64,000 nucleotides of DNA, taken from Alphaproteobacteria bacterium (GTDB lineage: Bacteria > Pseudomonadota > Alphaproteobacteria > Rhodobacterales > Rhodobacteraceae). The notes under the pieces were generated by a model. The model saw only the letters and a program-made list of their open reading frames with translations. It ran no database searches and was not told the origin of the DNA. Position 1 is the stretch's first letter. Each line of letters begins with the position of its first letter. Shown here piece after piece: positions 2,417 through 54,296 of this stretch. The stretch spans positions 331 through 64,330 of the forward strand of contig JAUIIR010000010.1 of the NCBI GenBank assembly GCA_030431485.1, written 5' to 3'. A program made the position numbers and the translations under genes.

Positions 2417-2534
2417 TGCGTCTCGTGAGCTTTGTGAACATGAACTGCATAGAGTGGAGCCACGCTTTCGCGCACAGGTTCCAAATGGAAATGTTTGCAA
2501 ACACGTCTTCCAAGCCCACTCGTGTTCAAGCGTG

Positions 2535-3221: not shown

Positions 3222-3967
3222 GCCTCTTCCCCCAGATAAGCCTCGCGTACGGCGCGGCTTTGGCGGATCTCGTCGACCGTGCCCGTGGCGATCACCTTAC
3301 CGTAGACCAGGACGCTGATCCGATCGGCAAGTGCAAAGACCGCGTCCATGTCGTGCTCGACCAGCAGGATTGGGGCTTCCGCCCGAAGCTGATCAAGGAA
3401 CCCGGTCAGCAGCTTTGACCCTTCGGCTCCAAGTCCAGCCATTGGTTCGTCCATCACGAAGGCCCTGGGTGACAGCGTCAGCGCAACTGCGACTTCAAGC
3501 TGACGCCGCTGGCCGTGTGACAGCTCGGCACAGCGGGTGTGCCTGTGTTCGATCAACCCGACACGCTCCAGCGCCGCTTCGGCCTTGGCGGTCAGAGATG
3601 TGTCCGAGAGCGCCCGCGACCAGAACCGCCACGGATTACCCGATGCGCCCAACGCGCCCAGCACGACATTTTCCAGAACGCTGTCTTCCATTGCCAGCGC
3701 CGAGATCTGGAAAGTCCGCCCCAACCCGGCGCGTGCGCGCGCCTGCGTGCTGTCCTGCGTCACGTCGCGCCCCAAAAGGTGCACCGAGCCTGAATCGGGC
3801 TTGAGCCCCCCGCAGATCTGCGCGATCAGCGTCGACTTGCCCGCGCCGTTCGGGCCGATGATTGCGTGGATTTCGCCCGGATGCAGGTCGATGGAGACGT
3901 TGTCGGTTGCGGTCAATGCACCGAAACTTTTTCGCAGTGCCCGTGTTTCAAGAAGCGCTTCAGACAT
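3218..3967 (-). CDS. LivG-like ABC transporter ATP-binding protein
   Basis: Walker A GPNGAGKST, signature LSHGQRRQLE, Walker B FVMDEP. Its start overlaps the stop of the upstream permease gene. Confidence 0.9.
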   Translation of the reverse strand: MSEALLETRALRKSFGALTATDNVSIDLHPGEIHAIIGPNGAGKSTLIAQICGGLKPDSGSVHLLGRDVTQDSTQARARAGLGRTFQISALAMEDSVLENVVLGALGASGNPWRFWSRALSDTSLTAKAEAALERVGLIEHRHTRCAELSHGQRRQLEVAVALTLSPRAFVMDEPMAGLGAEGSKLLTGFLDQLRAEAPILLVEHDMDAVFALADRISVLVYGKVIATGTVDEIRQSRAVREAYLGEEA

Positions 3968-5860: not shown

Positions 5861-5914
5861 GACTGCCCGAAACCCGATGTGCCGGGGCAGCACCCCGGCA
5901 CGCCGCGTGATGTT

Positions 5915-7045: not shown

Positions 7046-7249
7046 CTGGTTCTCCCCGTTGTTGTCGTCCGGTTTGATCGGCGCGTTTTTGTGACCTGAT
7101 GGGTGGTTCGCGTCTGACCCAGGACGTTTTATCCCTGAATGTGTTGAACAAAGCGGGCCGAAAAACAAGACAGCAGCGCGAATAACTTCTGTCGCGCTAG
7201 CGATCAAAGCAGGGGTGTTGCCAAATTTTACCATATGGTAAAATCCGCT

Positions 7250-8680
7250 TCAGGCGCGCTGAATGCGAAGCTTTGCTTGCAGTCCGGTTGCCGAATTTTC
7301 GAAGGACAACGCGCCATTGTGCAGCGCGGCGATGGTCGCAACGATGGAGAGGCCAAGCCCGTGCCCTTGAACAAAGGCGGTGTTGTCGCCCCTCTCGAAT
7401 GGGCCGATCAGGGCTTCGACATCCTTGGCCAAAGTGTCTGACCCTTCGTCCTCGACTACGATGGTGGCGGTGCGCGCATCGGCTTCGATGACCACGCTTG
7501 CACTTCGCCCATACTTCAATGCGTTGTCGATCAGGTTGGTGATGGCTCGTTTCAGGGCCACCGGACGGCCGCTGATGATCACCTGTCGCCCGGTGGTGAC
7601 CACGCTTTGCCCCTGCCGCGACATGAAGAGCGACCGCCCTCCCTGAACCACCACGTCGCGCGGCGGCACGAGTGTGACGGGTTCGCCGACGTCTTGATAG
7701 TCCGCGACGATGGCCTCAACGAGAGAGTCGAGCGATAGCTTGCGCGGTGCCTCGGCGTTCATCTCGGCACGGGTGTATGTCAGGGCGCTCTCGATGATCC
7801 CGGTCATCGAGTCGATGTCGGACTCCAGCTTTCGGCGCAGCTCGTCGTCCTGGATCAGGGCGGTGCGCAAACGCAGGCGCGTGGCGGGCGTGCCTAGGTC
7901 ATGGCTGACGCTGGACAAAACCGCGGCCCGGTTGGCCAGCTGTTTGCGCTCGGTTTCTAGAAACGCGTTCAAAGCGTCCACGATGTCGCGTAATTCGCGA
8001 GGGCCGCGCGTTTCATAGCTGTCCGGTCCGCCAAATCGACGGTTTCGAAAGGCGTGTGCGAAGGCGTCAAAGGTCTGGGTGGTGTTTCCGATCAACGTGA
8101 AGAGCGCCGCAACCGCCACGAGGCCGACCAAAACCGCAAGCAGGCGAAGGTCGCGCGGGGCAGCGTCGCACCCCCAGATTGCGCTGCCATCTACCTGCTG
8201 CCAGGCCTCGTTGTCATAGCGTGCAATGAGGATCGGCGTGCTGCAATAGGTTGCAAAGAGTTTTGCGAGCGATGCCAATTGTGCCGAGGCCGATGGCACA
8301 ACATCGGCGGGAATATCTGCAACAGGGTATTGGAGAACGTCCGACACCGCAGCCAGCCGCAGTCCGCCTTCGTTGTTCTGCAATGACAGGACAGTCACGT
8401 AGGCCGGTTGCGGCATCCCCGAGATGCGTTCGAATTTACCGGCTTCTGCGAGCAGGGAGTCGGCAGAGGACAGCGCCGTGATATGCAAATCCGGATGGGT
8501 ATCCAGCCCTGTCCGCAAAGCTTCGTATGTCAGCAATCCAGCCGTCTGCGCGGCGGACAAGTGATTGGTCCAAGATTGCGAAGACCTCAGCCAAAGCGCG
8601 GTTGATAGAGATGCAGACAGCATGGCAAGAGCCACCCAGAACCAGGCCAAGCTGCGCAGCCGGAACACGCGGGACCTCAT
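7250..8680 (-). CDS. Two-component sensor histidine kinase
   Basis: Two TM segments (LAWFWVALAMLSASLSTALWL and LLAVLVGLVAVAALFTLIG), H-box LSSVSHDLGTPATRL and a C-terminal HATPase region (NLIDNALKY, DEGSD, GHGLGLSIV). Its start overlaps the stop of the response-regulator gene (TGATG). Confidence 0.9.
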   Translation of the reverse strand: MRSRVFRLRSLAWFWVALAMLSASLSTALWLRSSQSWTNHLSAAQTAGLLTYEALRTGLDTHPDLHITALSSADSLLAEAGKFERISGMPQPAYVTVLSLQNNEGGLRLAAVSDVLQYPVADIPADVVPSASAQLASLAKLFATYCSTPILIARYDNEAWQQVDGSAIWGCDAAPRDLRLLAVLVGLVAVAALFTLIGNTTQTFDAFAHAFRNRRFGGPDSYETRGPRELRDIVDALNAFLETERKQLANRAAVLSSVSHDLGTPATRLRLRTALIQDDELRRKLESDIDSMTGIIESALTYTRAEMNAEAPRKLSLDSLVEAIVADYQDVGEPVTLVPPRDVVVQGGRSLFMSRQGQSVVTTGRQVIISGRPVALKRAITNLIDNALKYGRSASVVIEADARTATIVVEDEGSDTLAKDVEALIGPFERGDNTAFVQGHGLGLSIVATIAALHNGALSFENSATGLQAKLRIQRA

Positions 8681-9414
8681 CAGTCGGACTCAGCGCTCAC
8701 ATCGACGGCAAAGACGTAACCGGTTCCACGTTCTGTACGTATCATGTCCGGTGCTTTGGGGTCTGCTTCAATCTTTGAACGCAGCCGACCAACCAGAACA
8801 TCAATCGCGCGGCCCGTCGCCTCGGGTTGGTCTTGGTCGCCGGTGACATCCAGTGCGGTTGCGATTTCCTGCCGTGTCAGCGGAATGTGCGGATTGGCAA
8901 GCAAAACTTTCAGCAGTGCTGTTTCGCGCCGGGACAGGGTCACCTGATACCCGTCTGGTGATCGCACTTCATCCTGCTTGCCATCATAGACCCAGCCGCC
9001 GAAGTGAAAGGTCTGAATGCGCCGCCGGTAGATCAGGGATGAGGATCGCCGCGCCCGGGACAGCACCGCGCGGACACGTGCAAGCAGCAACTCCGGATTG
9101 AATGGTTTGGCGATGTAATCGTCCGCGCCCGTCTCGTAGCCCTCCATCCGCTGGTGGTCGGCAGAAAGAGCCGAGACCATGATGATCGGCACGTCATGAT
9201 CGCGTCTCAGACCTTGGCAAATCTCCAGCCCACTTTCGTCGCCAAGCATCACATCCAACAAAATTAAGTCGATCCGGCCATCTTCCAGATGGCGATGCAC
9301 ATCGGCTTCGTTTGCAGCGGGTAGCGCAATGCATCCATGCTGGCGCAGATACTGACACATCATCTGGCGCATGTCCGGGTCGTCGTCGACGACAAGAAGT
9401 CGTGGAATCGCCAC
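8680..9414 (-). CDS. OmpR/PhoB-family response regulator
   Basis: Receiver domain (LLVVDDDPDM, LILLDVMLGDESG, MVSAL) plus a winged-helix output (LTRQEIATAL, IRTERGTGYVF). I prefer the GTG at 9414, which sits 9 nt after GGAGGA. The track start at 9459 is TTG with no SD. Confidence 0.85.
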   Translation of the reverse strand: MAIPRLLVVDDDPDMRQMMCQYLRQHGCIALPAANEADVHRHLEDGRIDLILLDVMLGDESGLEICQGLRRDHDVPIIMVSALSADHQRMEGYETGADDYIAKPFNPELLLARVRAVLSRARRSSSLIYRRRIQTFHFGGWVYDGKQDEVRSPDGYQVTLSRRETALLKVLLANPHIPLTRQEIATALDVTGDQDQPEATGRAIDVLVGRLRSKIEADPKAPDMIRTERGTGYVFAVDVSAESD

Positions 9415-9639
9415 CTGCCGCTGTCCTCCGTAAACGCTGCGGTTCTGCTGTGATCTCAACTCTTATGTAACAACAGGAAACGAAATCCCGTCCAGTGTAA
9501 CAGCGTGTAACGGGCGATGGAAAAATCTGCACTCCATTTCTGAAAAGCCGCCATGACGTGATTGCAATGCTGGGTGTGATTTCGCCAAAGATAGGTACCT
9601 GATGCCCGAACTGGCACAGATTTTGGGAGGACTATACAC

Positions 9640-10881
9640 ATGAAATCCGTATTTTTCGGCGCTGTCTCCGCCACCGCTCTGATCGCATCCGCAGTCCATG
9701 CTGAACCTCAGGCCGAGGTTCTGCACTGGTGGACATCCGGCGGTGAAGCGAAGTCGGTTGCCGTGCTGCAGGAAGAGTTTGCCTCGAAAGGCGGCACCTG
9801 GACAGACATGCCGGTTGCAGGTGGCGGCGGTGATGCCGCAATGACCGCGCTGCGCGCACGCGTTCTGTCGGGCAACGCTCCGACGGCGGTTCAGCTGAAG
9901 GGCCCAGCGATCCAGGAATGGTACGAAGAGGGCGTGCTTGCAGATATCTCGTCCGTCGCCGAAGCGCAGGGCTGGGCGGACGTTCTGCCGGCCTCCATCG
10001 CAGGCCACATGAAGTGCGAAGGGTCCTGGTGCGCCGCACCGGTGAACGTGCACCGCGTTGACTGGATCTGGGCAAACGCAGACGTGCTGGAAGCGAATGG
10101 CATCGAAATGCCAACCACCTGGGACGAATTCAACGCAGCGGCTGAAAAGCTCGAAGCGGCTGGCGTCATCCCACTCGCACACGGCGGTCAGGCCTGGCAG
10201 GACGCGACCGTGTTCGAAGCGGTGGCGCTTGGCATTCTCGGCGCGGACGGCTTCCGCAAGGCGTTTGTCGATCTCGATATGGACACTCTGAAGTCCGACG
10301 AGATGAAGGCGGTCTTCGACCAGATGCGCACCATGCGCGGATATGTTGACGAGAACTTTTCGGGCCGTGACTGGAACCTTGCCACCGCGATGGTCATGAA
10401 CGGCGAAGCGGCGTTCCAGATCATGGGCGACTGGGCGAAGGGCGAATTCATGGCGGCTGGCAAGGTGCCGGGAGAAGACTTCCTTTGCGCGTCGGTGCCG
10501 GGCGATGGCTTCCTCTACAACGTGGACAGCTTTGCCATGTTCGACGTGGACGGCGACGATAAGCAAGCTGGTCAGGAACTGCTGGCAGAGCTGATCGTCG
10601 GTCAAAACTTCCAAAAGGTGTTCAACCTGAACAAAGGCTCGATCCCGGCGCGCACCGACGTGTCGCTGGACGAGTTCGACAGCTGTGCTCACCTGTCTGC
10701 CAAAGACATGAGCGAAAGCTCTGACAATGGCTCGCTTCTGCCCAGCTATGCCCACGGTATGGCGCTGCGCGGCGCGCAGTCTGGTGCGATCACTGACGTT
10801 GTCACCGCACACTTCAACTCCGACATGTCCTCGGAAGAAGCCGTGAACATGCTGGCCGACGCGGTCGCCAACAGCATGTAA
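9640..10881 (+). CDS. Extracellular solute-binding protein of a CUT1-type sugar ABC transporter
   Basis: Signal peptide MKSVFFGAVSATALIASAVHA and SBP_bac_1-like sequence (LHWWTSGGEA). SD GGGAGG lies upstream of the ATG. First gene of a four-gene ABC operon. Confidence 0.85.
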   Translation: MKSVFFGAVSATALIASAVHAEPQAEVLHWWTSGGEAKSVAVLQEEFASKGGTWTDMPVAGGGGDAAMTALRARVLSGNAPTAVQLKGPAIQEWYEEGVLADISSVAEAQGWADVLPASIAGHMKCEGSWCAAPVNVHRVDWIWANADVLEANGIEMPTTWDEFNAAAEKLEAAGVIPLAHGGQAWQDATVFEAVALGILGADGFRKAFVDLDMDTLKSDEMKAVFDQMRTMRGYVDENFSGRDWNLATAMVMNGEAAFQIMGDWAKGEFMAAGKVPGEDFLCASVPGDGFLYNVDSFAMFDVDGDDKQAGQELLAELIVGQNFQKVFNLNKGSIPARTDVSLDEFDSCAHLSAKDMSESSDNGSLLPSYAHGMALRGAQSGAITDVVTAHFNSDMSSEEAVNMLADAVANSM

Positions 10882-10938
10882 TTCTATCTTCCCGCCCCAA
10901 AGCACCCGCTTGGGGCGGGACTTTCAGGGACAGATCCA

Positions 10939-11811
10939 ATGACCAAGTGGCTTGAAGAAAACACGCCCAAATTGGTACTGGCGCCCTCGTTCATCGCAGT
11001 TCTGATCTTCGTCTACGGCTTCATTGCCTGGACCGCCTGGGTCTCGTTCACGCGATCGCGCCTGCTTCCAAGATATGACATCGAAGGGCTTATCCAGTAC
11101 GAGCGCCTGTTTGCGTCTCCGCGCTGGGACACCGCGCTGAACAACCTGTTTGTGTTCGGCATCCTATTCATCGTGATTGCGATGGTGCTTGGGCTGGTCC
11201 TTGCCATCCTGCTCGATCAGAACATCCGCACCGAGGGTGCGATCCGCACGATCTACCTCTACCCAATGGCGCTTTCGATGATCGTTACGGGCACCGCTTG
11301 GAAATGGATCCTGAATCCCGGTCTTGGGGTCGAGGCCATGGTGCGCGGCTGGGGCTTTGAGAACTTCACCTTCGACTGGCTGGTTAACCCGGACATGGCA
11401 ATCTACACCATCGTCATCGCCGCGATCTGGCAAAGCTCGGGGTTTGTGATGGCGCTTTTTCTGGCCGGTCTGCGGTCGGTGGATGGCGAAATCATCAAAG
11501 CCGCGCAGGTCGACGGTATCCCGACCTGGCGCATCTATACCGCCATCATCATCCCGTCGATGGCCCCGATCTTTCTGTCGGCCTTCATCGTTCTGTCGCA
11601 CCTCGCCATCAAGAGCTTTGACCTTGTCATTGCGCTCACCGGCGGTGGACCCGGCTACGCGACCGACCTTCCGGCGACCTATATGTACGCGATGGCCTTT
11701 TCGCGTGGCGACATCGGTCAGGCGGCCAGCTCTGCCATGATCATGATGATGGTCGTCTTCGCAATCGTGGTGCCGTACCTCTATTCGGAATTGAGGTCCA
11801 AAGATGACTGA
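10939..11811 (+). CDS. Sugar ABC transporter permease (MalF/UgpA-like)
   Basis: Six-TM-type membrane protein with an EAA-like loop (AAQVDGIPTWRIYTAIIIP). Confidence 0.85.
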   Translation: MTKWLEENTPKLVLAPSFIAVLIFVYGFIAWTAWVSFTRSRLLPRYDIEGLIQYERLFASPRWDTALNNLFVFGILFIVIAMVLGLVLAILLDQNIRTEGAIRTIYLYPMALSMIVTGTAWKWILNPGLGVEAMVRGWGFENFTFDWLVNPDMAIYTIVIAAIWQSSGFVMALFLAGLRSVDGEIIKAAQVDGIPTWRIYTAIIIPSMAPIFLSAFIVLSHLAIKSFDLVIALTGGGPGYATDLPATYMYAMAFSRGDIGQAASSAMIMMMVVFAIVVPYLYSELRSKDD

Positions 11812-12697
11812 TATTTCAATGACTTCCGCGCAAAGCCAAAGCCAGACGGGCAAGATCGTTCTGCGGTGGCTGCTATACATCGCGTTGGGTCTGTTTGCCC
11901 TGTTCTACCTGATGCCGCTCTTCGTGATGATAACCACATCACTCAAGAGCCTGGACGAAATCCGCACGGGCGACCTCATAGCCCTGCCAAGAGAAGTTAC
12001 TTTCGACGCGTGGCGCACTGCGTGGTCGGGAGCCTGTACCGGCATCCAGTGCGAAGGTGTGCGGCCCTACTTCTGGAACTCGATCCTGATCGCCATCCCG
12101 GCGGTGGCCATCTCGACCCTGCTGGGAGCGATGAATGGCTATGTCGTGGCCCACTGGCGGTTCCGGGGTGCGAACATCATTTTCTCGCTGATGCTCTTTG
12201 GCTGCTTCATTCCATTCCAGGTGGTGTTGTTGCCGATGGCACGGACACTGGGGATCATGGGTATCGCGGGCACCATTCCGGGGCTGATCTTTGTCCACGT
12301 GATCTACGGGCTTGGCTTCACCACGCTGTTCTTCCGCAACTACTACGTCACGATCCCGGCTGAGTTGACCAAAGCCGCAAAGGTGGACGGGGCAGGGTTC
12401 TTCCGCATCTTCTGGTCGATCTTCCTTCCGCTGTCGCTTCCGATCATCGTCGTGACCGTCATCTGGCAGTTCACGCAGATCTGGAACGACTTCCTGTTCG
12501 GCGTGTCCTTCAGTCAGGCCGGAACGCAGCCCGTGACTGTGGCTCTGAACAATATCGTCAACTCGACCACTGGCGTCAAAGAATACAACGTCGACATGGC
12601 CGCCGCGATCATTGCCGCGCTGCCGACGCTGTTCGTCTACGTTGTCGCCGGGAAATACTTTATCCGCGGTCTGACCGCCGGTTCCGTGAAAGGATAA
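11804..12697 (+). CDS. Sugar ABC transporter permease (MalG/UgpE-like)
   Basis: Membrane protein with an EAA loop (AAKVDGAGFFRIFWSIFLPLS). Overlaps the upstream permease by 8 nt. Confidence 0.85.
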   Translation: MTDISMTSAQSQSQTGKIVLRWLLYIALGLFALFYLMPLFVMITTSLKSLDEIRTGDLIALPREVTFDAWRTAWSGACTGIQCEGVRPYFWNSILIAIPAVAISTLLGAMNGYVVAHWRFRGANIIFSLMLFGCFIPFQVVLLPMARTLGIMGIAGTIPGLIFVHVIYGLGFTTLFFRNYYVTIPAELTKAAKVDGAGFFRIFWSIFLPLSLPIIVVTVIWQFTQIWNDFLFGVSFSQAGTQPVTVALNNIVNSTTGVKEYNVDMAAAIIAALPTLFVYVVAGKYFIRGLTAGSVKG

Positions 12698-12701
12698 CCC
12701 C

Positions 12702-13799
12702 ATGTCTCCGATCCTGGACATCAAGAACCTCTACAAAAGCTACGGCACGACGGAGATCCTCAAGGATATCAACGTGTCGATCGAACCGGGTGATTTTCTT
12801 GTTCTCGTAGGCCCCTCGGGCTGTGGCAAGTCCACGCTGCTGAACTGCATCGCTGGGCTTGAGCCGATCACCGGTGGCTCTATCAGCATCGGTGGCAAGG
12901 ACATGACCCATGTCAGCCCCAAGGACCGCGACATCGCGATGGTATTCCAGTCCTACGCGCTCTACCCGACGATGACCGTCGCCAAGAACATCACCTTCGG
13001 CATGAAGGTGCGCGGCGTCGATCAGACCACGCAGGACAAGAAACTGGCGCAGGTGGCCGCGCAATTGCAGATCGAACCGTTGCTGAACCGCCGTCCGGGG
13101 CAGTTGTCAGGTGGTCAGCGTCAGCGTGTGGCGATGGGCCGGGCGCTGGTGCGTGATCCCAAGTTGTTCCTCTTTGATGAACCGCTGTCCAACCTGGACG
13201 CCAAACTTCGGGTCGAGATGCGGACCGAGATCAAGGCGTTGCACCAGAATCTTGGCGCGTCAATGGTCTATGTGACCCACGACCAGATCGAGGCGATGAC
13301 ACTGGCGACCAAGATCGTTGTGATGAAAGGCGGTGTGATCCAGCAGATTGGATCCCCGGCGGAAATCTACAACCGCCCGGCCAATCTGTTTGTGGCCGAC
13401 TTCATGGGCAGCCCGGCGATGAACCTCATCCCCGCGAAGGCGCTTCGCGCGGACGACGGCACACGGATCGAGATCACCCGCAAATCCGGTGAACCGATTG
13501 TTCTGACCGACACCAAGAACCGCGATCTGCCTGAAGACGTGATCCTGGGTGTTCGGCCCGAAGACATTGCCGATCCTGATCTGCGCGGGTCGGATTCGAC
13601 GCAGGCAGCGGAATGCCTGATCGACATTGTCGAACCGGCAGGGGCCGACACGTTCGCGGTGATGCAACTGGGTGGCAAACACGTCACGGCGCGTCTGCAT
13701 GCGGAAACGACGGCCAAGCCGGGTCAGCCCAAGCGGCTGTCCTTTGATCTGGGCAAGGTGTCGTATTTTGCGCCGGAAACCGGCCTGCGCTTGAACTGA
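12702..13799 (+). CDS. Sugar ABC transporter ATP-binding protein (MalK/UgpC-like)
   Basis: Walker A GPSGCGKST, Q-loop, signature LSGGQRQRVA, Walker B LFLFDEPLS, and a C-terminal MalK-type regulatory domain. Confidence 0.9.
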   Translation: MSPILDIKNLYKSYGTTEILKDINVSIEPGDFLVLVGPSGCGKSTLLNCIAGLEPITGGSISIGGKDMTHVSPKDRDIAMVFQSYALYPTMTVAKNITFGMKVRGVDQTTQDKKLAQVAAQLQIEPLLNRRPGQLSGGQRQRVAMGRALVRDPKLFLFDEPLSNLDAKLRVEMRTEIKALHQNLGASMVYVTHDQIEAMTLATKIVVMKGGVIQQIGSPAEIYNRPANLFVADFMGSPAMNLIPAKALRADDGTRIEITRKSGEPIVLTDTKNRDLPEDVILGVRPEDIADPDLRGSDSTQAAECLIDIVEPAGADTFAVMQLGGKHVTARLHAETTAKPGQPKRLSFDLGKVSYFAPETGLRLN

Positions 13800-31797: not shown

Positions 31798-32595
31798 ATG
31801 CGCCTGAAGATCGAACATACGACGCTCTACCGTTTTGACACTCCGGTGCTTTACGGGCTGCAGCAACTTCGCAAGACGCCGAAGTCCTCGTACAATCAGT
31901 CGGTCATCTCGTGGGAAACGCGCATTGAAGGGGGCCGCAAAGAACTCAGCTTTGAGGATCATCATCACAACACCACCGAATTGATCAGCTTTGACGCTCA
32001 TATCACTGAAATGTCGGTGATCAGCGCAGGAGAAGTTGAGGTCTCGGACACGGCTGGTGTGCTTGGCCCGCATCATGGAATGACACCGCTGTGGCTCTAT
32101 TGTCTGACCACGCCGAGGACCGAAGCAGGGGCCGGCACGCGTGCTCTTGTCAAAGGAATAAGCGCCGAACCGGATATCGCGGATTTGCACGCGCTGTCAG
32201 AGAGAATACGCACCGAGGTGCCGTACACTCTGGGTGTCTCGTCCCCTGACTGGAGTGCTGAAGACGCCATTGCGGCTAAGCAGGGGGTCTGCCAGGATCA
32301 CACCCACATCATGATTGCCTGCGCACGGGCGCTGAAATTGCCAGCCCGATATGCCAGCGGCTACCTGATGCTGAATGAAACCACCACGCAAGAGGCCATG
32401 CATGCCTGGGCTGAGGTGCATGTCGATGGGCTCGGCTGGGTCGGTTTTGACGTGTCCAATGGTGTTTCGCCTGACACACGCTATGTGCGTGTTGCGACGG
32501 GGCTGGACTATTCCGATGCAGCCCCGATATCTGGTACACGGATTGGCGGCGTGAATGAAGAACTCGACGTCCGCATCAACGTGGTTCAGCAATAA
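31798..32595 (+). CDS. Transglutaminase-family protein (Bact_transglu_N plus transglutaminase core)
   Basis: N-terminus MRLKIEHTTLYRFDTPV. Core Cys-His-Asp signature: QGVCQDHTHIMIACARALKLPARYASGYL, HAWAEVHVDGLGWVGFDVSNG. Confidence 0.85.
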   Translation: MRLKIEHTTLYRFDTPVLYGLQQLRKTPKSSYNQSVISWETRIEGGRKELSFEDHHHNTTELISFDAHITEMSVISAGEVEVSDTAGVLGPHHGMTPLWLYCLTTPRTEAGAGTRALVKGISAEPDIADLHALSERIRTEVPYTLGVSSPDWSAEDAIAAKQGVCQDHTHIMIACARALKLPARYASGYLMLNETTTQEAMHAWAEVHVDGLGWVGFDVSNGVSPDTRYVRVATGLDYSDAAPISGTRIGGVNEELDVRINVVQQ

Positions 32596-32605
32596 AGGCT
32601 CCCAA

Positions 32606-33346
32606 GTGACATATTGCGTTGGAATGATGCTGCGCAGCGGCTTGGTCTTCATGTCAGACACGCGCACCAACGCGGGGTTGGACAATATCTCGACCTTCAA
32701 AAAGATGACCATCTGGGAAGAGCCGGGCGAACGCGTGCTGACTCTTATGTCGGCGGGCAACCTTGCTACCACCCAAGCCGTGGTCAGCCTGTTGGACGAG
32801 CGCAGCAAACAACCCGAGGACCGGACGCCATCGCTGATGAAGGCGCCGTCGATGTTTCAGGCGGCTTGCATGGTTGGTGATACGCTTCGCGAGGTGATCA
32901 AGGGATTGACGGAAGGCGGTCAACGTGCCGACAGCGCCTTTGAAGCCACATTGATCCTTGGTGGACAGATCGCGGGCAGCCCGCCACGTCTGTTCCTGAT
33001 TTATCCGCAGGGCAATTTCATTGAAGCGGGAGAGGACACGCCGTTCTTTCAGATCGGAGAGATCAAATACGGTCGTCCGATCCTTGTACGCGCCTACGAC
33101 CCCGATCTGGACTTTGCAGATGCGCTCAAGCTCTTGCTTGTCAGCTTTGACTCCACGCTCAAGGCCAATCTGTCTGTTGGCGCACCGCTTGATTACTTCT
33201 GCTACACAACTGACAGCCTTGAGAAAAAGCACATTGGTCGTGTCGAAGCAGACAATCCCGAATTTCAGGCAATCTCGACTCAGTGGGGCAATGCGCTTAA
33301 GCAGGCGCTGGATACGTTGCCTGACGTCAATCTGAACACGAACTGA
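32606..33346 (+). CDS. Anbu, a proteasome-type (Ntn) protease beta-subunit homologue
   Basis: An in-frame GTG at 32606 gives (M)TYCVGMMLRSGLVFMSDTRTNAGLDNISTFKK, i.e. a Thr directly after the initiator. This matches my recollection of Anbu N-termini. The track ORF from 32555 overlaps the transglutaminase gene and is probably too long. Confidence 0.8.
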   Translation: MTYCVGMMLRSGLVFMSDTRTNAGLDNISTFKKMTIWEEPGERVLTLMSAGNLATTQAVVSLLDERSKQPEDRTPSLMKAPSMFQAACMVGDTLREVIKGLTEGGQRADSAFEATLILGGQIAGSPPRLFLIYPQGNFIEAGEDTPFFQIGEIKYGRPILVRAYDPDLDFADALKLLLVSFDSTLKANLSVGAPLDYFCYTTDSLEKKHIGRVEADNPEFQAISTQWGNALKQALDTLPDVNLNTN

Positions 33347-33369: not shown

Positions 33370-34323
33370 ATGACTGCAAGCCCCGTTATCTGCGTTGGCG
33401 GTGAAAACCTTATTGATCACGTCACCCGCGATGGCGACGTGTCAGCCCTTGCCGGCGGCTCGCCGTTCAATGTTGCAATGGCGCTTGGCCGCCAACAGGC
33501 GAATGTGCACTATCTGACACCGATCTCCACAGATGAGTGGGGGGACCTTCTCGCCGATACCCTCGTTTCGTCAGGTGTTAAGCTCGCCGGGGGGCGCGTC
33601 GATGCTCCAACAACAATTGCGCGCGTCACCGTCACCAACGGGATTCCGTCTTACGTCTTTGAACGCGATGGCACAGCCGAGCGGAGGATAACTGCAGCTT
33701 CATTATCGTCTGCGATGCCATCGGAAACGCGCGCTCTCCATACGGGGTCGCTGGCCCTGACGGACGGAGCGGATGCGGATGCGTGGGAGGAGACCTGCAA
33801 AGCTGCATATGCGGCGGGTACGCTTGTTTCGCTGGACCCAAACGTCCGCCTGTCCGTCATCACCGATATCGATGCCTATCGCGCACGGATCTTCCGCATG
33901 ATGAAATCTGTGCACGTGCTCAAATTGAGCGACGAAGACCTTGAAGGCCTTTGCCCGGACATGCCGCAGGATAAAGCGCTGGATCATGTAAAGGCGCAAA
34001 GCTCGGCCGCGTTGGTGGTGATGACCAAAGGTCCAGATGGCGCAACCGCGATGCGTAGCGATGTGAGTGTCGACATCCCTGCACCGCCGGTTCCCGGACT
34101 GGTCGACACGGTCGGGGCCGGCGACACGTTTATGGCCACCCTTCTGGCGGGCTTGGCGCGGATATCTGTCTTGTCGGCGGATGCTCTGACCGTTCTGAAT
34201 GCCGAGCAAGTCGAGGCCTTGATCCGTCGCGCAGGCATGGCCGCGGCACTCAACTGCAGCCGGGCCGGGTGCAATCCGCCCACTCTGGCCGAACTTGACA
34301 CAGCGATGGCTGCGGCGGGCTGA
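33370..34323 (+). CDS. PfkB-family carbohydrate kinase (fructokinase-like)
   Basis: ICVGGENLID at the N-terminus and the C-terminal PfkB signature DTVGAGDTFMATLLAGL. Confidence 0.8.
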   Translation: MTASPVICVGGENLIDHVTRDGDVSALAGGSPFNVAMALGRQQANVHYLTPISTDEWGDLLADTLVSSGVKLAGGRVDAPTTIARVTVTNGIPSYVFERDGTAERRITAASLSSAMPSETRALHTGSLALTDGADADAWEETCKAAYAAGTLVSLDPNVRLSVITDIDAYRARIFRMMKSVHVLKLSDEDLEGLCPDMPQDKALDHVKAQSSAALVVMTKGPDGATAMRSDVSVDIPAPPVPGLVDTVGAGDTFMATLLAGLARISVLSADALTVLNAEQVEALIRRAGMAAALNCSRAGCNPPTLAELDTAMAAAG

Positions 34324-34327
34324 TCTC

Positions 34328-34984
34328 ATGGACCTTTACCTCGACACGGCCGACCAAAAAGCATGGTCAGATCTCATGCCGACCGGTGTTTTCAAAGGCA
34401 TCACGACCAACCCACTTCTGGCACAGCGTGCCGGGCTCGAATATCCAACAATCAATTGGACCGATATGGCGCAGCGCGCGCATGATCTTGGAGCGCGGGA
34501 GCTGCACGCGCAGGTGTTTGGTCCGGTCGAGACCTACGTGGATTGGGCAGGTCGACTCTATGAGGCCGGCGCCAGGGTCGGCATACAAACAGTGGTCAAG
34601 ATCCCGATGACGCCGGAAGCTCTGCATGCAGTACCTTCGGTCAAGGCGCTTGGTGGTCCGATCCTTCTGACAGCGGTCTACGATCCCAAGCAGATTTTCG
34701 TCGCGAAAGCCTTGGGCGCCGAGTTCGCGGCACCGTATTTTGGCCGCATGCACGAAGCCGGTCTGCCCGCGCTTGATCGCCTCGAACAAATGCTGGTCAT
34801 TTCAGGCGGCGCACCACGTATCCTTGTGGCTTCGCTCCGCAGTACCGAGCAAATGGTGGCGCTTGCTATGCGCGGGCTCGATTGTTTCACCCTCGCACCG
34901 GATGTGGCCAAAAGTCTGCTGTTGGATCCCATGACCGAAGAGGCGGCTGCAGCTTTCGAGGCAGCCGCCGGTCAGGGCCTATAA
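34328..34984 (+). CDS. Transaldolase-family protein of the short Fsa/TalC type
   Basis: The ATG at 34328 gives MDLYLDTADQKAWSDLMPTGVFKGITTNPLL. Candidate Schiff-base Lys in VVKIPMT. Length is about 218 aa, as in Fsa/TalC-like enzymes. Confidence 0.75.
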   Translation: MDLYLDTADQKAWSDLMPTGVFKGITTNPLLAQRAGLEYPTINWTDMAQRAHDLGARELHAQVFGPVETYVDWAGRLYEAGARVGIQTVVKIPMTPEALHAVPSVKALGGPILLTAVYDPKQIFVAKALGAEFAAPYFGRMHEAGLPALDRLEQMLVISGGAPRILVASLRSTEQMVALAMRGLDCFTLAPDVAKSLLLDPMTEEAAAAFEAAAGQGL

Positions 34985-35281
34985 AGACAAGCGACGTTCT
35001 TTTGCTCCGCCGCGCCTGCGTGGTTTCGGCAGAGCGAGATCAAGCGGCTTCAATGGGGCATCCAAAGAGGTTTTGAGCAAAGCGCAAAACTCTGCCACCG
35101 CTGGATCTGTGTCCTTGAATGGTGCGGCCGCCATAAAGGCACAGGTCGCCTCGGTCAGATAGCAGGCCTGCGGTGGTAGGCTGCCCAACCATTGCATATA
35201 GCCCAGCTGCCCGATTTCCCGCGCACGTTCCGCGGTGCGTGGATTGACCTGCAGCTGGGTCAGGGTTCGTTCGATCGACAT
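34979..35281 (-). CDS. Hypothetical 100-aa protein, the only ORF downstream of the cobalamin riboswitch
   Basis: The ATG at 35281 is preceded by GGAGGG about 6 nt upstream. Sequence: MSIERTLTQLQVNPRTAERAREIGQLGYMQWLGSLPPQACYLTEATCAFMAAAPFKDTD...PKPRRRGGAKERRLSL. I recognise no family. The track ORF (to 35482) runs into the riboswitch aptamer, so the shorter start is preferred. Confidence 0.55.
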   Translation of the reverse strand: MSIERTLTQLQVNPRTAERAREIGQLGYMQWLGSLPPQACYLTEATCAFMAAAPFKDTDPAVAEFCALLKTSLDAPLKPLDLALPKPRRRGGAKERRLSL

Positions 35282-35393
35282 AAAGCGCCCTCCGCGCTGA
35301 GACGGGCTGCATCGAGGTCGGGTCCATGAGTCGCACCACAACAGCGCAAGGCATGTCGACCTCCGGTGCACCCCGCCCGGGTTCAGTTCACAT

Positions 35394-35562
35394 GTGATGG
35401 CAGGTCTCCTGACTTGCGGGTCATCATGCGGTTCGCACCTTCCCAGGCTCATCGGCCCAGTGGTCTTGCGCGAAGCACTCACCGCTTACAGTTGCGGGGG
35501 CAGTCACGGATTTTCACCGTATTCCCTATTCGGACAGCGCGTAGCACGCTGCCCACCATCAC
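35394..35562 (-). promoter_or_regulatory. Cobalamin (B12) riboswitch aptamer
   Basis: The minus strand reads GGUGAUGGUGGGCAGCGUGCUACGCGCUGUCCGAAUAGGGAAUACGGUGAAAAUCCGUGACUGCCCCCGCAACUGUAAGCGGUGAG..GACCACUGGGCC..CUGGGAAGGUGCG..CAAGUCAGGAGACCUGCCAUCAC. All hallmark blocks are present: AAUAGGGAA, GGUGAAAAUCC, GCCCCCGCAACUGUAA, GCCACUGG-like, GGGAAGG and the B12 box AGUCAGGAGACCUGCC. A closing P1 helix pairs GUGAUGG with CCAUCAC. Confidence 0.88.
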
Positions 35563-35802
35563 CCCGCACTGTCACAGAGGACGCGATTCCAGGCAATCGA
35601 ATTTCATGCCTCTGTCGAATTCGACGCAGTTCCCGGAGCGCCTTCACAGATTGTTAAGCTCCGGGTGCAAAAAACCGGCAGAACCGAGGCAAGTTTGCCC
35701 GAATTGATCACCCCAGGAAATCGTGTGATGCGCAAGATCAGGCAATTTCAATCACATCGCCGGCTGTGTGCCGCTGCTGGAAAGCAGGATCATCGGGATC
35801 GC

Positions 35803-38800
35803 TCATTCGATGATTGCCGGATCAGCGATCCCCACCAATTGCATCAGAAACCCATCTTCCGTCCCGTCGAGGATGTCTGCATAGATCGCATCGCTTTGCG
35901 CCAACCTGTCCTGCAGGCTGTCCCCGGTTCCGTCAAAGCCGTGCATCACCATGCGCGCCTCATCGACATCGGACATGCCGCGCGTGACTGCGAAATGCCC
36001 TCCGAGCAGAACCTTGTTCGCCAAATAGGCGGCATCGGCCGGGCTGCCGGTCTCGGCTTTAGCGCCTGCGAGGATCTCCTGAATAAAGGTGGGTGGAGTG
36101 ATCGCCGGATTGGTCTCAAGCAGCTCGAGCCAGAAATTCAGACCCGCCGCGTCGGGCGCGCGGCCCAGCACGTTCTGATAGACTGCTGTCACGAACTCGG
36201 ACAGGTCCGCCACCTCGCCATAAAGCGCACGGGTTTCAGGCTGATCAAAGAAGTATCCCGCGATGTCGCGGAGGCTCATGCCATCGGCAAGCTGATTGCC
36301 CCAGAAGTAAAGACCAACCGCATCCGGTGCCCGATTGAAATACGCGATATAAAGCTCGGTCAGAGCCGCCATCGCAGAACCGTCCAGTTGGGCCATGCCG
36401 TCGAACATGTCCACATCCAGACCGGCTGCACCGAAGACCGGCAAGGTCTCGGCGAACGTGACCTGATCATCCGCGTTCAGAATGCGCTGACCATCGCCAT
36501 CCGGCCGCCGATCTTCAATGACAATGGTGTCATCAGCGATACGCAGCGTGTAACTGGACTGGGCACCGCTCAGTGTGATCGGACCGTCATCGTCGCCTTG
36601 TTGGAGCCGGTTTGTGCTTTGCGCAGCCTCGTCGCTGTCGGAGACGTCCACATTCACATCAGGTCCTGCGGTCAAGGACGCAACAGTACCGTCTGTGGTC
36701 CCGCCACTATGGATGTTTTGTGTTTCACTGATCCATTGGGAGATGTTTTGGAAGTTTTGTGTGACGGTTGGGTTGAGTGTGTCTGGGAGCTGTATGTTTT
36801 GCGGGGGGAGTTGTCCTGTGAGTGTTGTGAAGTGGATGAGGGATGTGAGGAAGGAGAGTGTTGGCGTTGCGTGGCCTCCATCGTCGAGGAAGAGGTCTTC
36901 GGCGGTGAGGGTTTGCAGGCCGAGTTCGGGCGTGCTGATCATCTCTGCGACGCGGCTTCCGACGGGGATGAGGCGCACGTCGAGATCGGGGCGGGCCTGC
37001 TGGATCATCTCGGTGAGGGCCACCCACCAGCCATGCCATTCGCCGGTCATGCTGTCGCTCCATGCGTCAAGCTGCACCGGGACATCCGGGTAGCCGTCCA
37101 TCTCGGGCCAGGTCTCGTAGATGTTGATGGTGGCGCCGGGGGCACGGGCCTCGGCCCAGTCGATGATGCGCAGCGCGGCTTCGAGCGGCGAGGTGCCGGG
37201 CTCATGCCAATAGGGGCTGTCCGGGGACTGATCCTGCACATAGTTTGCCGGCGAGAGGGTGATCTGGTTGAAACCGGCTTCGGCAAAGCTCTGGCCTGCC
37301 TCCGGGTCCCAGGCGTTCTCGACGCCCTCAAGCCACAGCGTGGGATTGGCCGGCAGATCGTCATGCTGGGTCAGCATGCCGGTCTGGATCGAGGTGGCAT
37401 AGGAGATGCCGGACTGGGCGGCCATCTGCACCATCCAGTGAGGGACCGAATGCTCGGGGGCGTTGTCGGCCAGGGCGAAGAGCCCGTTGCCGAAAACATA
37501 TTCGCGGATCTCGGTGACGGTATCGATCACGGGCTGCGGCGTGGGTTCAGGCTGCGGCGCAGGCCGTGGCTGGGGCACAGGTGTCGGTGTGGGCTCCGGT
37601 ACAGGCAGCGGCTGCGGCTCGGGCTGCGGCGTGGGCACCGGGGTCGGCACGGGGGCGCCCTCGTCCTCCGGCGCGGGCGCAGGGCCCGGCACGGGGCCAA
37701 AGTCGAAATCGGCGTTGCCCCAGGTGCCGTCCTTCATGGTGGCGGGGGCGGGATGGCTGTCCATGAACGCCACCACGGCATCATGGCGTGCGGTGCTGTC
37801 CTGCAGGTGGCGCAGCGATCCCCAGCTGCCCCATTGGCTGGGCTCGGAGACATCGACGAAGGCGTTGAACAGCGTGCCACCAGCCGCTTCCCAGCCTGCG
37901 AGCAGCTCGGTGTAGAGCTGCCCCATACCGTCGGAATAGTTGAGATGAGTGAAGAACTCGGTGAGCTGATCGTTGTTGATCCATTGCCCGACACCGGCGA
38001 CATGGGTGCCGCCCTCGTACATCACCAGATCGAGCCCATGCGCCTCGGCGACGGATTTGTGGTAGGCGAACATCTCGAACAGGTGCTGCAGGGAATCCTC
38101 GCTATTGCCGGTGACCGACCCGTCACGCAGCTCGCGCACCGCCAGGTCCACAGCCAGATCGAAACGGTGCTCGGCAAAATAGGCCTCGGCGGCGCTGCCG
38201 CTCAGCCCACGAGCCGACGCGTCCTGACGGGCCTGAGCCTCGCTCCGGGCGATCCAGTCGAGCACCAGCGGCGCTTTGGCGTCCGTGCCGAGGCCGCCGC
38301 TGAAATAGCCGGTGATGGCGTAGGTGTCGAAGGAGAGATAGGGCGCGGCGTTGGTCGGGCTGAGCGCCTGCCATGCGGGCGCCTGCAGGATCGATTCCTC
38401 CAGCCCCGGCCAGCCGGTATGGGTGGCGATGACCTTGACCAGCCGGTCCTCGTTGCCTGCATAGACCGTGTCGAGGACGCGCGCCATCTCGGTTGCGCGG
38501 GCACCGTATTCCTGCATCCAGCCATCGCCGAGGTCCTGACCGAAGCGCGCCTCCGCAGCGGCCGCGGCCTCACGGGCCTGCTCGAACATCCAGTTCCAGA
38601 CCTCGTTGGACATCTCGATATGGGCGCGCAGATCGGGGTCGAGATTGTCGCGCACATAGGTTGCGAAATTGCGGATATAGGCCTCGTCGGCATTCCAGGG
38701 GATGTTGAACCAGGGTTCGGTGCCGGTGGCATTGGCCAGCGCGACCATGACCTCGAGGGGCACACCTTCGGAATAGCTGTAAGTGTCGGGTGTGGGACGG

Positions 38801-39423
38801 TCGGACCAGCTGCGGATGGTGGATTCGTTGGTCTCCTGCCAATCCATGAAGCGCAGCGCCTGGGCGTCACCGATCACCTCGAGCCAGAGCGGGTTGAAGA
38901 GCGCGCCGGCCTCAAAAGCCGGGATGTACTCCTGCTTGACCACCTCGATATTGCGCAGGTAGTTGCCGGTGTTCTGCGGGTCGGTGTCGGAAATCGACAC
39001 CACAACCATGCCTTCGCCGGTGGGGGTGTAGTTGAACCAGATCTCGCCATTCGACTGCGATACGATCTCGGCGCCATGCACATGGATCTCGCCCGCGCCA
39101 TCATAGCTCAGCCGGTAGGTCCCCGCCGTGTACTGCGCCTCCGCTGGCATCTCGGTGAGGATGAAGGTCTCGACCCGGTCAACCCCGGCCGGCAGATCGG
39201 TGATCCAGCCATTGGCATCCAGAAGACCCATCGCCGCCAGATCCTCCGCCTGATAGGCCCCCCACTGGCTCTCGCTGTGCCCAAGCCACGCACGCGAGGT
39301 CTTGAACACATCCAAAAACGGCTGCTGAACACTCCAATCAACAACACCGCGCAAACCAAACGACAAACCAGCCGAAGACGTCTGCGTCCCAAATATGTTG
39401 GTCAAGGGTTCCATACCCCACAC
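35803..39423 (-). CDS. Large (about 1200 aa) multidomain protein: clan-GH-A-like TIM-barrel N-domain, Pro/Thr linker, unassigned middle domain, two DUF4214-like C-terminal repeats
   Basis: The start is GTG at 39423 or ATG at 39414 (MEPLTNIFG), preceded by GAGGGG. There is no Sec, Tat or lipoprotein signal. The N-domain has SNEVWNW and MYEGGTH, candidate acid/base and nucleophile Glu of (beta/alpha)8 glycosidases, plus RFMDWQETNES. The linker is PVPGPAPAPEDEGAPVPTPVPTPQPEPQPLPVPEPTPTPVPQPRPAPQPEPTPQP. The C-terminal repeats are LYIAYFNRAPDAVGLYFWGNQL and VYQNVLGRAPDAAGLNFWLELL (DUF4214-type). Confidence 0.8.
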   Translation of the reverse strand: MWGMEPLTNIFGTQTSSAGLSFGLRGVVDWSVQQPFLDVFKTSRAWLGHSESQWGAYQAEDLAAMGLLDANGWITDLPAGVDRVETFILTEMPAEAQYTAGTYRLSYDGAGEIHVHGAEIVSQSNGEIWFNYTPTGEGMVVVSISDTDPQNTGNYLRNIEVVKQEYIPAFEAGALFNPLWLEVIGDAQALRFMDWQETNESTIRSWSDRPTPDTYSYSEGVPLEVMVALANATGTEPWFNIPWNADEAYIRNFATYVRDNLDPDLRAHIEMSNEVWNWMFEQAREAAAAAEARFGQDLGDGWMQEYGARATEMARVLDTVYAGNEDRLVKVIATHTGWPGLEESILQAPAWQALSPTNAAPYLSFDTYAITGYFSGGLGTDAKAPLVLDWIARSEAQARQDASARGLSGSAAEAYFAEHRFDLAVDLAVRELRDGSVTGNSEDSLQHLFEMFAYHKSVAEAHGLDLVMYEGGTHVAGVGQWINNDQLTEFFTHLNYSDGMGQLYTELLAGWEAAGGTLFNAFVDVSEPSQWGSWGSLRHLQDSTARHDAVVAFMDSHPAPATMKDGTWGNADFDFGPVPGPAPAPEDEGAPVPTPVPTPQPEPQPLPVPEPTPTPVPQPRPAPQPEPTPQPVIDTVTEIREYVFGNGLFALADNAPEHSVPHWMVQMAAQSGISYATSIQTGMLTQHDDLPANPTLWLEGVENAWDPEAGQSFAEAGFNQITLSPANYVQDQSPDSPYWHEPGTSPLEAALRIIDWAEARAPGATINIYETWPEMDGYPDVPVQLDAWSDSMTGEWHGWWVALTEMIQQARPDLDVRLIPVGSRVAEMISTPELGLQTLTAEDLFLDDGGHATPTLSFLTSLIHFTTLTGQLPPQNIQLPDTLNPTVTQNFQNISQWISETQNIHSGGTTDGTVASLTAGPDVNVDVSDSDEAAQSTNRLQQGDDDGPITLSGAQSSYTLRIADDTIVIEDRRPDGDGQRILNADDQVTFAETLPVFGAAGLDVDMFDGMAQLDGSAMAALTELYIAYFNRAPDAVGLYFWGNQLADGMSLRDIAGYFFDQPETRALYGEVADLSEFVTAVYQNVLGRAPDAAGLNFWLELLETNPAITPPTFIQEILAGAKAETGSPADAAYLANKVLLGGHFAVTRGMSDVDEARMVMHGFDGTGDSLQDRLAQSDAIYADILDGTEDGFLMQLVGIADPAIIE
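37531..37700 (-). repeat. Low-complexity Pro/Thr-linker coding repeat inside the giant gene
   Basis: The plus strand shows reiterated GGCTGCGGC / GGTGTGGG / GGCACNGG units. These encode the PxPxP linker on the minus strand. Confidence 0.8.
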
Positions 39424-53051: not shown

Positions 53052-53067
53052 CGCGAAGTATCTTTCC

Positions 53068-53112
53068 CGTCACAACGGCTTCCTGACGTGGCGGCAGACC
53101 CTAATGGAGCAC
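53068..53112 (+). promoter_or_regulatory. Probable SAM/SAH riboswitch in the metK leader
   Basis: CGUCACAACGGCUUCCUGACGUGGCGGCAGACCCUAAUGGAGCAC lies directly upstream of the metK ATG at 53115. The core ACAACGGCUUCCUGACGUGGC matches my recollection of the Rhodobacterales-specific SAM/SAH motif. The loop GCUUC can pair with the SD-region GGAGC, forming a pseudoknot that occludes the RBS. Confidence 0.6.
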
Positions 53113-53114
53113 TC

Positions 53115-54296
53115 ATGTCCCGACAGAATTATATTTTCACCTCGGAATCCGTGTCCGAGGGCCACCCGGATAAGGTCTGTGACCGTATCTCGGACGCGAT
53201 CCTTGACGCCTTTCTTTCCGAAGAACCCGAAGCGCGGGTTGCCTGCGAAACCTTTGCCACGACCAATCGTGTCGTGATCGGTGGAGAGGTGGGACTGTCG
53301 GACCAGAACCGCCTTGCCACCTACATGGAGCGCGTCCCGGATATCGCCCGCGCCTGCATCAAGGACATCGGTTACGAACAGGACGAGTTCCACCATGCAA
53401 CCTGCGAAATCACCAATTTGCTGCACCAGCAGTCAGCGCATATCGCGCAGGGTGTGAACGCCAGTGCCGACAAGGACGAAGGCGCAGGTGATCAGGGGAT
53501 CATGTTCGGCTACGCCACAAACGAAACCGACGCGCTCATGCCTGCACCTATCCAGTTCAGCCACGCAATCCTGCGACGTCTGGCCGAGGTGCGGAAATCC
53601 GGGGCCGAGCCGCTGCTGCGCCCGGACGCCAAATCGCAGATCTCGGTGCGCTACGAGAACGGAAAGCCGATGGGCGTGACTTCGATTGTGTTGTCGACCC
53701 AGCACGCCGACGAGAGCCAAAGCTCCGCTGACATTCGCGCCATCGTCGAGCCCTATATCCGCGAGGTGCTGCCCGAGGGGTGGATCACAAACGAAACCGA
53801 ATGGTGGGTCAACCCGACCGGCACGTTTGTCATTGGCGGCCCCGATGGCGACGCGGGCCTCACAGGGCGCAAGATCATCGTCGACACCTATGGCGGTGCC
53901 GCCCCCCACGGGGGTGGCGCATTCTCGGGCAAAGACCCGACCAAGGTGGATCGCTCCGCTGCCTATGCCGCGCGATATCTGGCAAAGAACGTGGTCGCAG
54001 CGGGCATGGCGGAACGCTGCACGATCCAGCTCTCCTATGCGATCGGGGTCTCCAAGCCGCTGTCGATCTACGCTGACACACACGGCACCGGCGATGTTGA
54101 TGCCGCCGCAATCGAAGCGGCCATTCCCAAGGTGATGGACCTCACGCCGCGCGGCATCCGCACACATCTGGAACTGAACAAGCCGATCTATGAACGCACG
54201 GCGGCCTACGGCCATTTTGGCCGCGCGCCCGAAGCAGATGGCGGGTTCAGCTGGGAACGTACCGATCTGGTAGACGCGCTGAAATCCTCCGTTTGA
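53115..54296 (+). CDS. metK: S-adenosylmethionine synthase
   Basis: The ATG at 53115 gives [32 protein letters not shown]. Also [17 protein letters not shown] and [19 protein letters not shown]. Confidence 0.95.

Follow-up and report, generated by a model that had tools for sequence, protein, structure and literature searches.

The minus strand of the DNA studied here, a 64,000-nucleotide (nt) stretch of contig JAUIIR010000010.1 from an alphaproteobacterium of the Rhodobacteraceae (hereafter the window), carries a canonical, genuine cobalamin (vitamin B12) riboswitch at 35575-35382, followed by an open reading frame (ORF) of 100 amino acids (aa) at 34979-35281 (ATG 35281, TAG 34981-34979). 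This ORF is a real gene under strong purifying selection that encodes a small cytoplasmic protein of an orphan family, and comparison of its relatives at the sequence level firmly shows that its expression is tied to a B12 riboswitch throughout the evolutionary range of the family and that it lies in the company of genes for acquiring corrinoids and metals. The cargo joins the B12 regulon as a new member; its family has no relative in Pfam, NCBIfam or the PDB, and the protein probably belongs, so far unrecognised, to the response to low B12. We put at roughly 55% the probability that the protein is a B12-repressed cytoplasmic accessory or adaptor for the handling of corrinoids (or cobalt) when B12 is low. 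The occurrence of a B12 riboswitch in every informative locus is one of the cleanest regulatory signatures possible, and it makes the small protein a strong candidate for a component so far missing from the way bacteria traffic, prioritise or signal B12. The supply of B12 to marine algae is commonly attributed in large part to Rhodobacterales, and to our knowledge little has been established about how these bacteria handle corrinoids inside the cell under scarcity.

A small orphan protein behind a cobalamin riboswitch

The aptamer was matched by cmscan to the Rfam family RF00174 over model positions 1-189 of 189, with 136.3 bits (E 3.4e-34), which is four times the gathering score of 31.5. A preliminary description of this DNA had called it a textbook B12 aptamer, and all of the blocks named there are present. 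The P1 helix GUGAUGG/CCAUCAC (35562-35556 with 35400-35394), the C-rich L5 loop CCCCCG (35500-35495), and the B12 box AGUCAGGAGACCUGCC (35414-35399) were read from the sequence of the minus strand, and the GCCACUG and GGGAAGG blocks align to the RF00174 consensus. The riboswitch is of the class-I type and is ordinary as a riboswitch; the novelty lies in its cargo.

The 100-aa ORF, with a GGAGG 8 nt upstream of its ATG, is the sole co-oriented ORF downstream of the riboswitch, and its stop lies 6 nt inside a convergent transaldolase-like gene, just as first described. The protein contains three cysteines (C40, C47, and C66), has an isoelectric point of 9.25 and carries a net charge of +6 over residues 84-100. 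It shows no transmembrane or hydrophobic segment (maximum Kyte-Doolittle value 0.80) and no signal peptide. AlphaFold2 modelled a small helical bundle (pLDDT 83.5, pTM 0.72; predicted local and global confidence scores) with helices at residues 3-10, 17-34, 41-55, and 60-74 and then an extended basic tail of lower confidence, so that the protein would comprise a helical domain of about 75 residues and an invariant arginine-rich tail, LPxPxRRGGAxxRR. It could be placed in no family, as had been the case at the outset: no Pfam or NCBIfam family was matched at E<=1, and neither Foldseek against PDB and BFVD nor a profile search against PDB sequences returned a match. A longer, 167-aa version of the ORF with a GTG start (35482) was considered and rejected, as it runs into the aptamer and the members of the family all start at the MSIERT/MLLERT position.

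A homolog search of 5.8 billion proteins recovered 89 clusters, nearly all 100-103 aa in length, none with a Pfam domain and all hypothetical in every source that gives a name. When 1.84 billion representatives were searched exhaustively with a profile, no more than 77 clusters emerged at 50% identity, all of small proteins, and there was no informative domain fusion among these 77 (one 1055-aa hit was seen at E 7e-5). The family as found in these searches is small. Most of its members are from marine Rhodobacterales, some are from Rhizobiales, and a few belong to lineages further away. The alignment revealed an invariant GYMQW, conserved residues of the helix core, and the strictly kept C-terminal LPxPxRRGGAxxRR motif, with distant members retaining LGF(L/M)EW and RRGG..RR and losing the cysteines. 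The three cysteines and the basic tail had both been pointed out in the preliminary description; both are present, but the cysteines are not conserved in distant homologs and are unlikely to be functional ligands. A cysteine-based metal site was accordingly rejected, with only C66 invariant in close relatives and even this residue lost in distant ones.

The window comes from a Marivita species, as it shares 87-92% of its nucleotides with a metagenome-assembled genome (MAG) of Marivita, and selection on the ORF was assessed within the Marivita clade. The ratio of nonsynonymous to synonymous substitution rates (dN/dS) relative to the window was 0.02-0.10 with a median of 0.07 (95 pairs), and 47, 27, and 94 of 100 columns were variable at codon positions 1, 2, and 3, respectively. 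Conservation of the ORF and purifying selection in relatives that keep the riboswitch had been proposed as a check, and both were found. Membership in the class of regulatory leader peptides or upstream ORFs (uORFs) was rejected, given a dN/dS of about 0.07 along the whole ORF and its occurrence as a solo gene in more than half of the lineages.

For the linkage between gene and riboswitch we fetched 80 genome loci with relatives. These were mostly from Rhodobacterales (Marivita, Roseovarius, Roseicyclus, Ruegeria, Shimia, Thalassococcus, Pararhodobacter, and others), the remainder including Oricola, Hoeflea, an Ensifer MAG, Tepidamorphaceae, and Kiloniellaceae, so that three named orders of Alphaproteobacteria were represented. 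Riboswitches were detected with Rfam on 12 diverse loci and with an nhmmer profile on all loci. A B12 riboswitch was present upstream on the same strand in 77 of the 77 loci with enough upstream DNA; the other three of the 80 start 110-156 nt before the ORF, at a contig end, and are uninformative. The distance from the 3' end of the aptamer to the start codon was 100-175 nt in 74 loci. Five loci were fetched for three of the most divergent homologs (profile E 6e-9, 5e-12, and 3e-5); one of these homologs is encoded on the 7.8-Mb chromosome CP018632.1, and ocean metagenomes are the source of the others. A riboswitch scoring 71.7-113 bits stood directly upstream in four of the five loci, and the fifth, cut at a contig end, starts 74 nt before the ORF. 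The loci counted besides the 77 are L088, L089, L090, L092, and L093, each with a same-strand riboswitch before the small ORF; L093 is that of Stappia, where the family member stands directly behind a B12 riboswitch. No informative locus among those fetched contained a family member without a riboswitch, which answers in the affirmative the earlier question of whether the ORF is always preceded by one in its relatives.

These comparisons also bear on a second proposal of the preliminary description, in which the riboswitch would serve chiefly as antisense or terminating RNA against convergent sugar genes. Put in full, the targets would be the transaldolase-like and PfkB genes and the ORF would be incidental. 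The overlap of the ORF with the convergent gene amounts to 6 nt (34979-34984) and no terminator-like site follows the ORF in the window, both of which would suit such a role. The convergent gene (34295-34984, plus strand) belongs to the transaldolase/fructose-6-phosphate aldolase family (Pfam TAL_FSA, 73 bits), is context only and stands outside the riboswitch unit, with the PfkB kinase gene located past it. However, neighbour clustering of the fetched loci placed this convergent arrangement next to the riboswitch-ORF unit in the Marivita clade only, whereas the unit itself occurs in dozens of other, unrelated neighbourhoods, and the ORF is selected as a protein. We therefore regard the antisense proposal as very improbable and have set it aside.

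Leader anatomy and predicted switching

Immediately 3' of P1 lies a P13-like hairpin (CCGG-GCGGGGUGCA-CCGG, 35363-35381, minus strand) whose G-rich loop is a candidate L13. Across 26 platforms its loop, CGGGGYG, was invariant and its stem covaried, and a hairpin of this kind was also found 3' of most other B12 riboswitches checked in related loci. The L5 loop CCCCCG and the P13-like loop CGGGGUG are complementary; both are invariant, so that covariation between them cannot appear. An L5-L13 kissing loop is an established link from ligand binding to the expression platform (PMC9600662), and from its sequence the P13-like loop is the natural candidate for the L13 partner of L5, a pairing that we infer here.

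A second hairpin, AGCGC-GGAGG-GCGCU (35284-35298, minus strand), lies 2 nt before the start codon with the Shine-Dalgarno (SD) sequence GGAGG in its loop and is a candidate sequestering element. Its 13-nt core, GCGCGGAGGGCGC, had an exact match in 81 of 92 loci, once per locus and always directly before the small ORF, 1-5 nt from the start codon in most loci. The hairpin was predicted by both RNAfold and RNAalifold. Compensatory changes in its stem were seen in two Roseicyclus loci (GUGC..GCAC in L045 and L055) and on a TARA contig (GCAC..GUGC in L088). The core was not seen at any of the further B12 riboswitches examined in these loci, whose downstream genes are nrdAB, a Rieske oxygenase gene, a gene for a DUF1636 and substrate-binding protein (SBP), and metal ATP-binding cassette (ABC) operons. 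The hairpin was missing precisely in the three loci with the small ORF as an operon-distal gene, which indicates that the hairpin is a part of the riboswitch platform and not of the ORF.

A consensus scan of the window found no intrinsic terminator from the aptamer to the small ORF, which favours translational over transcriptional control. Taken with the anatomy of the leader and with known B12 riboswitches, this points to translational OFF control through occlusion of the SD sequence. RNAalifold also predicted a helix between CCAU, on the 3' side of P1, and a conserved AUGG further downstream, and without ligand this predicted pairing could take the place of P1. With ample B12, the bound ligand would stabilise P1 and the L5-L13 kissing loop, the SD sequence would stay locked in the GCGC-GGAGG-GCGC hairpin, and the small protein would not be made. 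With B12 in short supply, the 3' side of P1 would pair with the element containing the downstream AUGG, the platform would refold, and translation would start.

The translational B12 riboswitch of the Escherichia coli btuB type has an L5-L13 kissing loop and a hairpin at the ribosome-binding site. The arrangement here resembles it in its C-rich L5, its G-rich P13-like loop just 3' of P1, the lack of an intrinsic terminator, and the placement of the SD sequence inside a hairpin adjoining the AUG. It differs in that the SD hairpin here lies about 65 nt downstream of P13 and consists of a near-invariant, gene-specific 13-mer.

A short uORF just after P13, suggested by a conserved SD-like sequence and ATG, was also considered and rejected: 23 of 82 platforms have lost the start codon, its frame with respect to the main ORF was mixed (32 vs 26), and early stops occurred in two loci. 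The conserved GAUGG is better explained as RNA pairing with the 3' strand of P1 than as the start of a uORF. An alternative-frame ORF of 104 aa in the window (35040-35354, minus strand) is the local version of this non-conserved uORF frame; it gave no Pfam hit and was rejected as well.

Genomic partners and the probable role of the protein

Neighbouring genes were compared by neighbour clustering together with called genes and their Pfam matches. The small ORF was almost always the first gene after the riboswitch. It occurred as a solo gene in the Marivita clade (about 20 loci) and in about 30 other lineages, with unrelated and often convergent genes following. In 25 loci (some redundant; counted over all loci then in the set) it was followed at 1-5 nt, or with an overlap, by a 258-266-aa gene of the Peripla_BP_2 family (PF01497) resembling BtuF. 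The product is named 'cobalamin-binding protein' by NCBI and matched BtuF chains in the PDB at E 4e-8 to 2e-12. Its residue 5-8 aligns to residue 4 of mature BtuF and to profile position 24, so that a signal peptide is lacking and the protein is presumably located in the cytoplasm. It thus shares homology with BtuF and the class III substrate-binding proteins and differs from them in this lack of a signal peptide. The partner was 75-82% identical across genera, and was present even after the divergent homolog from TARA. The BtuF-like family, at at least 8000 clusters, is about 100 times the size of the small-ORF family, from which it follows that the small protein is an optional add-on to the module.

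A protein of about 295 aa combining DUF1289 and DUF6925, from an uncharacterised family of more than 1100 clusters, was added in 16 loci. Its AlphaFold2 model (pLDDT 81.5) gave a weak signal to HemS/PhuS (probability 0.72-0.90, E about 0.03, TM-score about 0.22), which is only a hint of a fold like that of these cytoplasmic haem chaperones. The pair of BtuF-like and DUF1289-DUF6925 genes was widespread under B12 riboswitches (L081 7308-8998, L093 5001-6682, L094 5001-6679, and the 25 loci above).

A complete BtuCDF-type importer followed the small ORF in L052, L061, L070, and L071, and in L042, L058, and L066 the ORF came after a metal importer like AztABC or ZnuABC, all under one riboswitch. 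In Methyloceanibacter the same metal-importer operon carried a BtuF-like gene at the place of the small ORF. The gene metH lay downstream of the small ORF in L085, and similar-sized unannotated ORFs lay there in L069 and L077. The Hoeflea unit was solo, between riboswitch-controlled nrdAB and a riboswitch-controlled Rieske/ferredoxin-reductase pair and beside Meth_synt_2 and MesX genes.

The close spacing in the 25 loci, where the stop of the small ORF lies 1-5 nt from the BtuF-like start or overlaps it, together with the first position behind the riboswitch, raises the question of whether the ORF might be a long leader acting in cis, its riboswitch-gated translation opening the messenger RNA or coupling ribosomes to the BtuF-like gene and the Marivita copy being a remnant. 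We consider this improbable. Purifying selection on the amino acids is strong inside the solo Marivita clade itself (dN/dS about 0.07), the motifs are invariant across orders, solo is the commonest arrangement, and the small ORF is also found in a distal position after ZnuABC-like genes; the separate hypothesis of a short uORF also failed.

A comparative reconstruction of the cobalamin regulon recognised four functional classes (PMC3766115), and the 100-aa family was not found in the main text of that paper. More broadly, the family, DUF6925, and the operon were not mentioned in the literature searched. The system shares with the known regulon (btuB/btuFCD, cob/cbi, cobalt transporters, metE, and nrdAB) a canonical aptamer, a leader of 100-130 nt, and the company of BtuF-like proteins, ABC importers, and islands of B12-independent isozymes. 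It differs in its cargo, which fits none of the four classes, being a soluble protein of 100 aa, without a domain that could be recognised, that is often the sole gene.

The preliminary description had suggested that the protein takes an unrecognised part in the homeostasis, trafficking or regulation of cobalamin, and this fits both the linkage to the riboswitch and the B12- and metal-related operon partners. The lack of catalytic or transport features, the small helical domain, and the invariant basic tail together favour a binding role. In Marivita the unit would be self-contained, with a riboswitch, its own promoter, and the B12-repressed translation of one small cytoplasmic protein. As an adaptor the protein would bind a partner through its basic tail and would, inside the cell, help to obtain scarce corrinoid or cobalt, pass it on or set priorities in its use. 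As partners it would have either ABC importers or the cytoplasmic module of BtuF-like and DUF1289-DUF6925 proteins, whether their genes are neighbours of the ORF or lie in another part of the genome. Human B12 trafficking has a cofactor-less adaptor, MMADHC (CblD), which offers a conceptual model of a small protein that does not itself bind the cofactor and docks on a B12-binding protein to direct delivery; no homology between the two was detected, and the likeness is one of concept.

Several observations weigh against an adaptor. Over half of the lineages, among them that of the window, have the ORF as a solo gene, so that the small protein need not be a physical partner of the BtuF-like protein, and BtuF-like genes often occur with no small ORF nearby. 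The BtuF-like and DUF1289-DUF6925 pair was not found in the window, the part of this Marivita genome that was searched. No homology assigns a biochemical activity to the protein, the Foldseek and profile searches having been without a match, and an arginine-rich tail would suit the binding of nucleic acid equally well. As for the repression by B12, the predicted pairing of the P1 3' strand with AUGG falls on invariant columns without covariation and is imperfect in the Marivita clade, and the switching helices of the platform, including the relay from P13 to the SD hairpin, are only partly resolved.

The main alternative is a regulator acting in trans, the output signal of the riboswitch, which would be made only at low B12 and whose tail would bind RNA, DNA or a regulatory protein. 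Its targets could be its own leader hairpin or other leaders, and B12 control would in this way reach genes without a riboswitch. The ORF standing alone in over half of the lineages, amid unrelated neighbourhoods, suggests action in trans, the invariant RRGG..RR tail with its net charge of +6 sits on a small helical domain, and the 13-nt hairpin, which co-occurs only with the small ORF, is conserved beyond the needs of SD occlusion. On the other hand, no helix-turn-helix or known nucleic-acid-binding fold was detected with Pfam, NCBIfam or Foldseek, there is no similarity to small regulators of the HemP/HmuP type, and the compensatory stem changes show that the hairpin is selected for structure and not for its exact sequence. 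The tight coupling to a cobalamin-binding protein gene in 25 loci also suits a functional partner better. We consider such a regulator possible but doubtful. A tentative form of the idea, no less doubtful, is that of a diffusible, arginine-tailed messenger of B12 scarcity, with the riboswitch governing this adaptor or regulator and no metabolic gene directly. The messenger would act in trans, either docking on cobalamin-binding proteins or importers and so redirecting the scarce cofactor, or binding RNA hairpins such as the GCGC-GGAGG-GCGC element of its own leader; if true, it would constitute a protein relay layer on top of riboswitch control.

The comparison with HemP/HmuP extends to gene order. 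HemP/HmuP is the small first gene of haem-uptake operons (hemPRSTUV), and the small soluble protein described here is also first in its operon, beside substrate-binding proteins and cytoplasmic proteins of a tetrapyrrole-handling type, the latter represented by the DUF6925 partner with its weak HemS/PhuS signal. Control here is by a riboswitch and not by Fur or Irr. Membership in the HemP/HmuP family (PF10636) was rejected: hhalign of the family alignment against HemP from L085 gave a probability of 0.1, and no Pfam hemP hit was obtained. The small protein can offer a genetic entry point to the riboswitch-controlled module of BtuF-like and DUF1289-DUF6925 proteins, which has thousands of members and is uncharacterised.

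Other riboswitch-controlled loci and flanking genes

The loci fetched for the small ORF contained further genes behind B12 riboswitches. Importers like AztABC or ZnuABC, each with an ATPase, an ABC-3 permease, and a ZnuA-type binding protein, were under riboswitch control in L058 (2785-5904), L066 (2816-5926), L042 (2273-5455), and L094 (1832-4938). Annotation by homology would call them zinc or manganese importers; they are candidate cobalt importers. In the Methyloceanibacter locus L094 a 43-aa ORF with a hydrophobic C-terminal segment (2258-2389) follows the riboswitch and precedes the gene of the ABC ATPase. In the Stappia locus L093 the stretch 6877-10801 holds a second B12 riboswitch before a DUF1636 and SBP_bac_5 fusion protein and permeases of the Opp/Nik type.

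In L084 (10281-7656, minus strand) a B12 riboswitch precedes a Rieske ring-hydroxylating oxygenase and an FNR-type [2Fe-2S] reductase, and related Rieske/FNR ORFs (clusters 36 and 45) adjoin the small-ORF unit in L023, L026, L033, L041, L044, L056, and L059. The pair may replace a B12-dependent demethylation step with one that works without B12. The same locus, from Hoeflea alexandrii (2431-13167), holds three cobalamin riboswitches within 8 kb, before nrdAB, the small ORF, and the Rieske pair, with Flavin_Reduct, Meth_synt_2, and MesX genes next to them. The whole looks like an island for living without B12.

In the window, the gene directly upstream of the riboswitch unit on the same strand (35803-39423, minus) encodes a protein of 1206 aa with a long linker rich in Pro, Thr, and Glu, and its placement is kept in the Marivita clade (neighbour cluster 9). 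A consensus scan found a terminator-like hairpin and T-run after this gene (35665-35687, minus strand; hairpin 35687-35675), which argues that the riboswitch unit has its own promoter, probably somewhere in 35665-35576. No sigma-70-type promoter was found for the unit by consensus scan, as is expected for an alphaproteobacterium.

Elsewhere in the window, an adjacent pair at 31798-33346 (plus strand) consists of a 265-aa ORF, transglutaminase-like by eye only, and then a 263-aa protein with a sub-threshold match to the Pfam family Proteasome (19.6 bits vs a cut-off of 22.4). Finally, a riboswitch for S-adenosylmethionine and S-adenosylhomocysteine (SAM/SAH, RF01727, 58.9 bits) was found at 53064-53111 (plus strand), directly before the ORF of the S-adenosylmethionine synthetase metK (53088-54296, plus strand), an arrangement typical for Rhodobacterales.

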